From NCBI RefSeq assembly GCF_003334315.1, contig NZ_QOWR01000008.1: a stretch of 64,000 nt of DNA. One strand, written 5' to 3'. Position numbers and translations under genes: made by a program. Below, piece after piece: positions 61,194 through 61,490 of this stretch. The stretch comes from Escherichia coli. Its GTDB lineage: Bacteria; Pseudomonadota; Gammaproteobacteria; Enterobacterales; Enterobacteriaceae. Every line of letters starts with the position of its first letter. The stretch's first letter is position 1. The notes beneath the pieces are model-generated. The model was not told the origin of the DNA and did not search any database. It was given only the letters and a program-made list of their open reading frames with translations.

Positions 61194-61490
61194 TAATACC
61201 CCGCCGTTAAATCATCCACCAAGCGCGAGTCGGATGCGCCGTACAACTCACCATCCGACCCAACCATAATGCTTTGCGTGCTGCCCATCGCCTCATTCAG
61301 CGCCACTTTCTGACCTTTTGCATCCAACAGCTTGAGCGTATCCGGACTAAACCCTTTTCAACACGCAGCTCGTCCGGCAACCACTGATAGTGGAAACGAG
61401 GCGCATTGGTCGCTTCGGCAACATTCATTCCACAATTGATGCTGTTCACCACCATTTGCAGCACGGTAGTGATGATCCAGCTACCGGTAA
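61194..61490 (-). pseudogene. gamma-glutamyltranspeptidase (ggt) 3' fragment
   Basis: minus strand encodes ...IITTVLQMVVNSINCGMNVAEATNAPRFHYQWLPDELRVEKG... and, after a frameshift, ...KGQKVALNEAMGSTQSIMVGSDGELYGASDSRLVDDLTAGY*, matching the GGT small-subunit C-terminus. Confidence 0.7.

Follow-up and report, generated by a model that had tools for sequence, protein, structure and literature searches.

[quoted passage not shown] Ribose kinase activity was demonstrated for the Salmonella rikA product, and the cluster is conserved in some Enterobacterales including Escherichia, while ggt, the gene for gamma-glutamyltransferase (GGT), is not mentioned in that paper (PMC13432705). In the S. enterica locus that we compared, the gene order is yhhX-yhhY-PfkB-GATase-DMT-PTE, followed by a convergent ggt of 580 aa and then yhhA-ugpQ, and the end of the gene for the phosphotriesterase-related protein (PTE) is 44 nt from the end of ggt. 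Here we analyzed a 64-kb stretch of Escherichia coli DNA (the window), in which homologues of these four genes lie beside a short remnant of ggt on an islet bounded by ends of insertion sequences (IS). We consider it quite probable that this remnant is by-catch, brought along from the ancestral ggt-adjacent locus of the rikA cluster, bounded by IS and now decaying neutrally. The features of the locus are as follows.

56573..56999, plus strand: 3' remnant of an IS66-family element (83% identity to IS682/ISEc23)
57013..61486, no strand assigned: block colinear with the Salmonella/Citrobacter yhhY-ggt interval (blastn, about 76% nucleotide identity)
57108..58322, plus strand: DeoR-HTH/PfkB kinase gene, rikA (STM3547) homologue (homology)
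58336..59094, plus strand: GATase1-like amidotransferase gene, STM3548 homologue (homology)
59151..60116, plus strand: DMT (YdcZ-type) transporter gene, STM3549 homologue (homology)
60119..61153, plus strand: PTE gene, STM3550 homologue, convergent with the ggt remnant (ggt')
61161..61187, minus strand: G+C-rich hairpin, ggt-type terminator, between the PTE stop and the ggt' stop
61193..61486, minus strand: ggt pseudogene fragment, codons 484-580 plus TAA (local alignment, blastn, Pfam, PGAP)
61355..61358, minus strand: frameshift site, T4 on the plus strand against the A5 run of intact ggt
61487..61514, no strand assigned: 28-bp spacer, GTAACAAAGTGAGTACATAAAGGCCATA, between the ggt breakpoint and the IS end
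61515..63280, minus strand: ISEc38-like IS of the ISL3 family (inverted repeats, ends of independent copies)
61565-63184, minus strand: transposase pseudogene with an internal stop, inside the ISEc38-like element (PGAP)

All four homologues of the rikA (STM3547)-STM3550 cluster are present in the same order (80-96% amino acid identity by tblastn, colinear blastn alignment, Pfam), and the kinase of the window is, as judged from this homology, the rikA homologue. The colinear block extends from 95 nt ahead of the kinase gene as far as the break in ggt. A gap of 39 nt separates the PTE stop (61151-61153) from the ggt' stop, and the hairpin within it, which is followed by a T run in the sense direction of ggt, has a counterpart at the equivalent position in Salmonella and Citrobacter. 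The DMT gene is split by an internal stop in the window (ORFs of 202 and 87 aa), but other E. coli strains and an E. albertii plasmid have an intact copy (321-323 aa). Thus, the cluster itself is eroding in some lineages.

With regard to the remnant, nucleotides 1449-1743 of K-12 ggt pair with 61193-61486 on the minus strand (local alignment and blastn, E 1.5e-119), with 23 substitutions (92.2% DNA identity) and one 1-nt deletion. A sequence-only reading of the window had recognized here an orphan 3' fragment of ggt beside the IS, and local alignment, blastn and Pfam (PF01019) all bear it out. Its extent had been given as 61194-61490 and about 95 codons, which is right within a few bases of the precise 61193-61486 and 97 codons, and the TAA placed near 61194 on the minus strand is the complement of 61193-61195. 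Where at least one frameshift had been suspected, the alignment contains exactly one, the deletion at 61355-61358, by which GAA AAA GGG of intact ggt became GAAAAGGG. The fragment is accordingly read in two minus-strand frames of 61150-61560, as ...GSWIITTVLQMVVNSINCGMNVAEATNAPRFHYQWLPDELRVEKG and, up to the stop, FSPDTLKLLDAKGQKVALNEAMGSTQSIMVGSDGELYGASDSRLVDDLTAGY. As that reading also anticipated, the translation aligns with GGT, since the frame-corrected peptide of 97 aa matches PF01019 (G_glu_transpept) at model positions 420-509 of 512 (Pfam scan, E 4.3e-20), and no upstream remainder of the gene exists in the window: tblastn of full K-12 GGT found one piece, residues 484-580, and no other ggt DNA in the 64 kb. 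An extension of the tblastn match to residue 477 and a 12-bp deletion at the 5' edge of the fragment were both rejected on inspection, true homology ending at ggt nt 1449. The RefSeq PGAP annotation already labels the fragment [quoted passage not shown], and it is in this respect an ordinary, previously annotated ggt pseudogene. A literature search on it gave no specific hit.

The fragment starts at codon 484, which is 93 codons downstream of Thr391, the catalytic threonine and autoprocessing nucleophile of E. coli GGT. The 97 codons present of 580 cover only the C-terminal half of the small subunit, so that a full-length precursor (about 580 aa) is not encoded and signal peptide, large subunit, catalytic threonine and start codon are all missing. 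Among the marks of a functional GGT gene, the fragment has the homology to PF01019; it has neither the full length nor Thr391 nor an ORF under selection. No working enzyme can be made from it, because promoter, start codon, large subunit and catalytic threonine are all lacking.

To place the fragment among known ggt genes, a query of 411 bases was compared with 5426 complete E. coli genomes. It matched two kinds of place in this genome set, native ggt, with 90.8-92.2% identity and homology that ends at the stop codon, and the islet copy, with 98.1-100% identity including the PTE end and the IS junction (2529 genomes). The best-matching genome has both places, and full native ggt is carried by 5426/5426 genomes, in agreement with the earlier statement that the native gene is located elsewhere. 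Across the 5376 genomes with a match, the best identity of the fragment to any native allele was 92.2%. Over 295 nt, identity is 92.2% to K-12, 90.5% and 89.8% to E69 and SCPM (two divergent "E. coli" species representatives), 89.5% to E. whittamii and 88.1% to E. albertii, in contrast to about 80-83% to Citrobacter, Salmonella, Klebsiella and Enterobacter (about 81% to Salmonella/Citrobacter). The fragment is therefore best classed, from these identities of 88-92% within Escherichia against about 80-83% to other genera, as Escherichia-type ggt. In a neighbor-joining tree of the 295 nt it falls beside native E. coli ggt, with a bootstrap of 38% and no clean synapomorphies. A word-indexed protein search with a 99-aa peptide returned only short GGT fragments of at most 94% identity, and a donor was not found among them. 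The sequence-only reading had proposed nucleotide identity as the means to tell a paralogue from a recent duplication; the comparison gives 92.2%, which fits neither, since about 100% would be expected from a recent duplication and a far lower value from an old paralogue.

The native arrangement in other genera is informative about the neighborhood of the fragment. Among the ggt loci listed for 80 species, a list without E. fergusonii, E. marmotae, E. ruysiae and the main E. coli representative, the cluster is directly beside ggt in S. enterica subsp. diarizonae and Citrobacter sp. On2M (tblastn), and window 57013-61486 aligns continuously with both of these loci (blastn). In Citrobacter On2M, ugpQ-yhhA-ggt, with ggt at full length, is followed by PTE-DMT-GATase-PfkB on the opposite strand, and beyond PfkB are an ORF of 294 aa and one of 162 aa, presumably yhhY; this is the native ggt locus. 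The arrangement of cluster and ggt is also present on a C. werkmanii-like contig, and S. bongori has the gene order of S. enterica plus a 1.7-kb insert. This insert (positions 9036-10718 of the S. bongori locus L093/L094) contains three small ORFs and lies between the PTE gene and ggt. On the other hand, the native ggt loci of K-12, E69, SCPM, E. whittamii and E. albertii are without the cluster and have a different hairpin after ggt, common to all of them. After this Escherichia hairpin, all but K-12 have the end of a convergent gene, apparently yhhY. In the loci and genomes examined, no living genome was found with Escherichia-type ggt beside the E. coli-type cluster.

The cluster alleles of E. 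coli, S. enterica subsp. enterica, subsp. diarizonae and S. bongori all share about 75% DNA identity, and those of Salmonella are this divergent despite occupying one chromosomal locus (five loci compared with window 57108-61153). For the flanking ggt and ugpQ, identity is 84-85% when the two Salmonella species are compared and 77-82% for E. coli against Salmonella, about 77-87% overall. Since the cluster alleles are at about 75% against these values of the flanks, the history of the cluster is not simply vertical. The cluster alleles of S. enterica and Citrobacter are 87-95% identical. As far as such identities can tell, the pattern looks like replacement of alleles via recombination in the flanks.

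Both edges of the block are at or near IS ends. On the left, homology begins at 57013-57015 against all four Salmonella and Citrobacter loci (blastn), and the terminus of the IS66 remnant, ...AACGCTTAC, ends at 56999, 13 bp before the first Salmonella-aligned base at 57013. Further left, 56331-56572 contains more IS scraps (IS2/IS3-like, 83-86% identical). The left flank of the islet in strain GN03204 is different (yaiO, acetyltransferase), which indicates that the islet core starts near 56331. On the right, the 28-bp spacer separates the ggt breakpoint from the ISEc38-like element, whose terminal inverted repeats of 43 nt (61515-61557 and 63238-63280) are imperfect and 81% complementary. Elements annotated as ISEc38/ISL3 match it at 93-95% identity with ends at 61515/6 and 63279/80, and its ORF of 459 aa contains DDE_Tnp_ISL3 (PF01610). 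The spacer occurs solely at this junction and was found nowhere else in the window, in the loci or in the E. coli genomes, and no 8-bp target duplication surrounds the element (AGGCCATA vs ATGTGAAG). With a broken transposase and differing flanks, the element is not a simple insertion, and the spacer and the missing target duplication point to a rearrangement, probably with a partner whose sequence was found neither in the window nor in the loci or E. coli genomes. Nor is the islet recognizable as a composite transposon, as an IS66 remnant stands on the left and an ISL3 element on the right and no duplications were found. After the ISEc38-like element there is a zinc-ribbon (DUF7828/Zn_ribbon_11) gene at 63468-63953, and in related genomes this gene is followed by YfjJ-like, AlpA-like and IS100/IS66 genes of a CP4-44-like island adjoining cobUST.

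The islet adjoins cobUST at the edge of a prophage-like island and is widespread. With a probe of 30 nt that spans breakpoint, spacer and IS end, the junction was detected in 2649 of the 5426 complete E. coli genomes; these have one copy in the median and two at most. A chimeric query, made of the islet piece and the upstream part of K-12 ggt, was compared with the same 5426 genomes and revealed intact ggt beside the cluster in none of them (no place covers both parts). The module is also present on conjugative IncF plasmids of E. coli and E. albertii, with ggt tails that are cut differently. E. albertii pEA17_1 matches window 56783-61336 at 95.7% identity and has the junction at the IS66 end in common with the window; all four cluster genes are annotated as intact, and its ggt' is cut at 61336, shorter and more decayed, with a different sequence next to it. 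E. coli pWP4-S18-ESBL-07_1 matches 57009-61368, with ggt' cut at 61368 and the same frameshift as in the window, and pARG01 carries the right-hand part of the module. The surroundings of the module on pEA17_1 include genes for T3SS effectors (NleG, OspF-like), a group II intron and IS100 and IS66 elements. The PTE of the E. albertii plasmid, looked up as an exact protein, was found on that plasmid alone, and the sequence-cluster members of E. coli PTE are all named E. coli. Moreover, three contigs of other Enterobacteriaceae have a PTE gene of 76% identity beside relaxase, NikA-like and DUF932 genes, and two of these contigs have the remaining cluster genes ahead of it. This module looks like an integrative mobilisable element.

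A sister variant of the fragment in strain GN03204 has the frameshift and 12 substitutions in common with the window, adds TGA and TAG stops, and retains the ancestral base at three sites that are altered in the window. The junction common to 2649/5426 genomes, the absence of intact ggt beside PTE (0/5426) and the shared lesions of GN03204 mark one old event. To see how the fragment has changed, the 23 differences from K-12 were polarized with four other Escherichia ggt sequences, which assigned 15 to the fragment branch (9 replacement, 6 silent) and 5 to the K-12 branch and left 3 ambiguous. In a binomial estimate with 67 silent and 224 replacement sites, this 9:6 split is very unlikely under ggt-like constraint (native dN/dS is about 0.04 between E. 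coli and Salmonella) and compatible with neutral decay. Against a cruder ancestor, the Escherichia consensus, the counts are 12 silent and 9 replacement (omega about 0.22), which departs both from pure neutrality (P 0.001) and from ggt-like constraint (P 0.0014) and suggests a selected phase first and decay later. The changes unique to the fragment and the two extra stops of GN03204 fit neutral decay. The changes also show a strong strand bias: on the sense strand of ggt, C-to-T accounts for 10-11 of them and G-to-A for 1 (binomial P about 8e-4), although this strand, the minus strand of the window, holds more G than C; the plus strand of the window has a negative GC skew. The bias fits cytosine deamination on the leading strand or read-through transcription from the IS. 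The fragment offers a clean illustration of neutral decay combined with a strand-biased C-to-T spectrum.

From these observations, the probable by-catch origin given above can be outlined as follows. The donor would be a genome of the Escherichia lineage in which the rikA-PTE cluster lay between yhhY and a convergent full-length ggt. A 4.5-kb piece, from the yhhY-rikA spacer to ggt codon 483, would have been excised, presumably by IS activity, and carried off on mobile DNA; one cut now abuts the IS66-family end and the other is 28 bp from the ISEc38-like element. About half of E. coli now have the piece beside cobUST, in an island rich in mobile elements, and IncF plasmids carry it as well. 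The ggt tail would have come along through physical attachment alone, because the cluster was originally tail-to-tail with ggt, as it still is in Salmonella and Citrobacter, and would have decayed neutrally thereafter. For the donor arrangement, which no genome examined displays, there are three readings: the capture may have preceded the loss of the cluster from the genus, with which the weakly supported tree is compatible; haplotypes with and without the cluster may have coexisted, as they now do among Citrobacter and Salmonella; or the tail may have been converted by resident ggt.

The sequence-only reading had offered two origins, a decayed second ggt copy carried by the islet and DNA rearranged by IS activity. 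A recent IS-mediated duplication of the resident ggt 3' end might be suspected because an IS end is 28 bp away and because E. coli ggt is the nearest relative of the fragment among the sequences compared. This origin is refuted by the level of identity and the flanks: among the 5376 matching genomes, no native allele exceeds 92.2% identity; the fragment lacks the downstream flank of native ggt; it is joined to the cluster just as ggt is in Salmonella; and the junction itself is about 2% diverged within E. coli. It is thus the least credible of the explanations that we weighed, and a recent IS-driven move of resident ggt DNA has to be abandoned. A second copy is a different matter, as the fragment is indeed borne by the islet. 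The idea that a complete second ggt arrived with the cluster, worked for a time and was then truncated in place by an IS before the islet diversified can draw on the omega of about 0.22, by which part of the divergence accumulated under selection, and on the IS without target duplication, as might be left by an IS-mediated adjacent deletion. The selected phase, however, is equally explained by the time spent as the ordinary native ggt of the donor, and 28 bp of unrelated DNA stand between the break and the IS end. Moreover, a longer copy occurs in 0/5426 E. coli genomes, in none of the islet and plasmid variants seen does the ggt tail reach beyond the 294-nt piece, and there is one truncation point in 2649. 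We therefore regard a once-complete second copy in E. coli as unlikely, and that part of the earlier proposal did not hold up (0/5426 intact beside the cluster).

It is also conceivable, though in our view very improbable, that both the cluster and its ggt tail were foreign and that the tail was later gene-converted by the resident E. coli ggt. Such a history would account for cluster genes at about 75% to every known allele attached to a ggt' at 92% to E. coli ggt, and for the homology to native ggt that ends exactly at the stop codon. But the differences are spread over the entire 294 nt with no tract edge, and conversion would work poorly on a 300-nt target of about 82% identity. Moreover, about 75% identity with saturated dS is also possible in weakly expressed genes of vertical descent (yhhA is 67-70% between E. 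coli and Salmonella). The better reading remains by-catch, which merges both earlier ideas: the islet carries the fragment since its cluster once lay tail-to-tail with ggt.

A broader history can be put forward only tentatively, and we would lean slightly against it: the rikA operon was lifted from the yhhY-ggt interval of an ancestral Escherichia and has survived as mobile cargo, with the ggt tail as a datable fossil and the hairpin perhaps as the terminator of the operon. If this is true, the tail dates the lifting of a chromosomal metabolic operon from the core yhhY-ggt interval, and the operon survived only as cargo on islands and IncF plasmids after loss of the native site in the genus. 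The retained ggt hairpin may serve as terminator of the displaced operon, which could explain the persistence of the tail in thousands of genomes. In practice, the ggt tail is a provenance tag, which indicates that the uncharacterised rikA/phosphotriesterase cluster beside cobUST was taken from a ggt-adjacent position, and it also marks the present travel of the cluster on IS-bounded islets and conjugative plasmids. Such a tag may be of use to studies on the function or spread of the rikA/PTE cluster.

Finally, the locus can be compared with three known systems. With the rikA-STM3550 locus of Salmonella it shares the four genes, their order and the convergence of PTE and ggt across a gap of about 40 nt with a hairpin; on the other hand, Salmonella has the cluster in the native yhhY-ggt interval beside an intact ggt, whereas the window has it on an IS-bounded islet with only the ggt tail, and the alleles are about 75% identical in DNA. 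With E. coli K-12 ggt (PF01019, Ntn-hydrolase), the fragment shares the stop position and 92.2% DNA identity over codons 484-580, but its downstream flank differs and its site is beside cobUST instead of the native locus. Like IS-bounded or composite-transposon-like cargo modules, the window has an operon flanked by IS ends, a truncated neighbor from the source locus and recurrence on plasmids and islands. Unlike composite transposons, it is flanked by ISs of different families (IS66 and ISL3), both of them defective, and has a 28-bp spacer.
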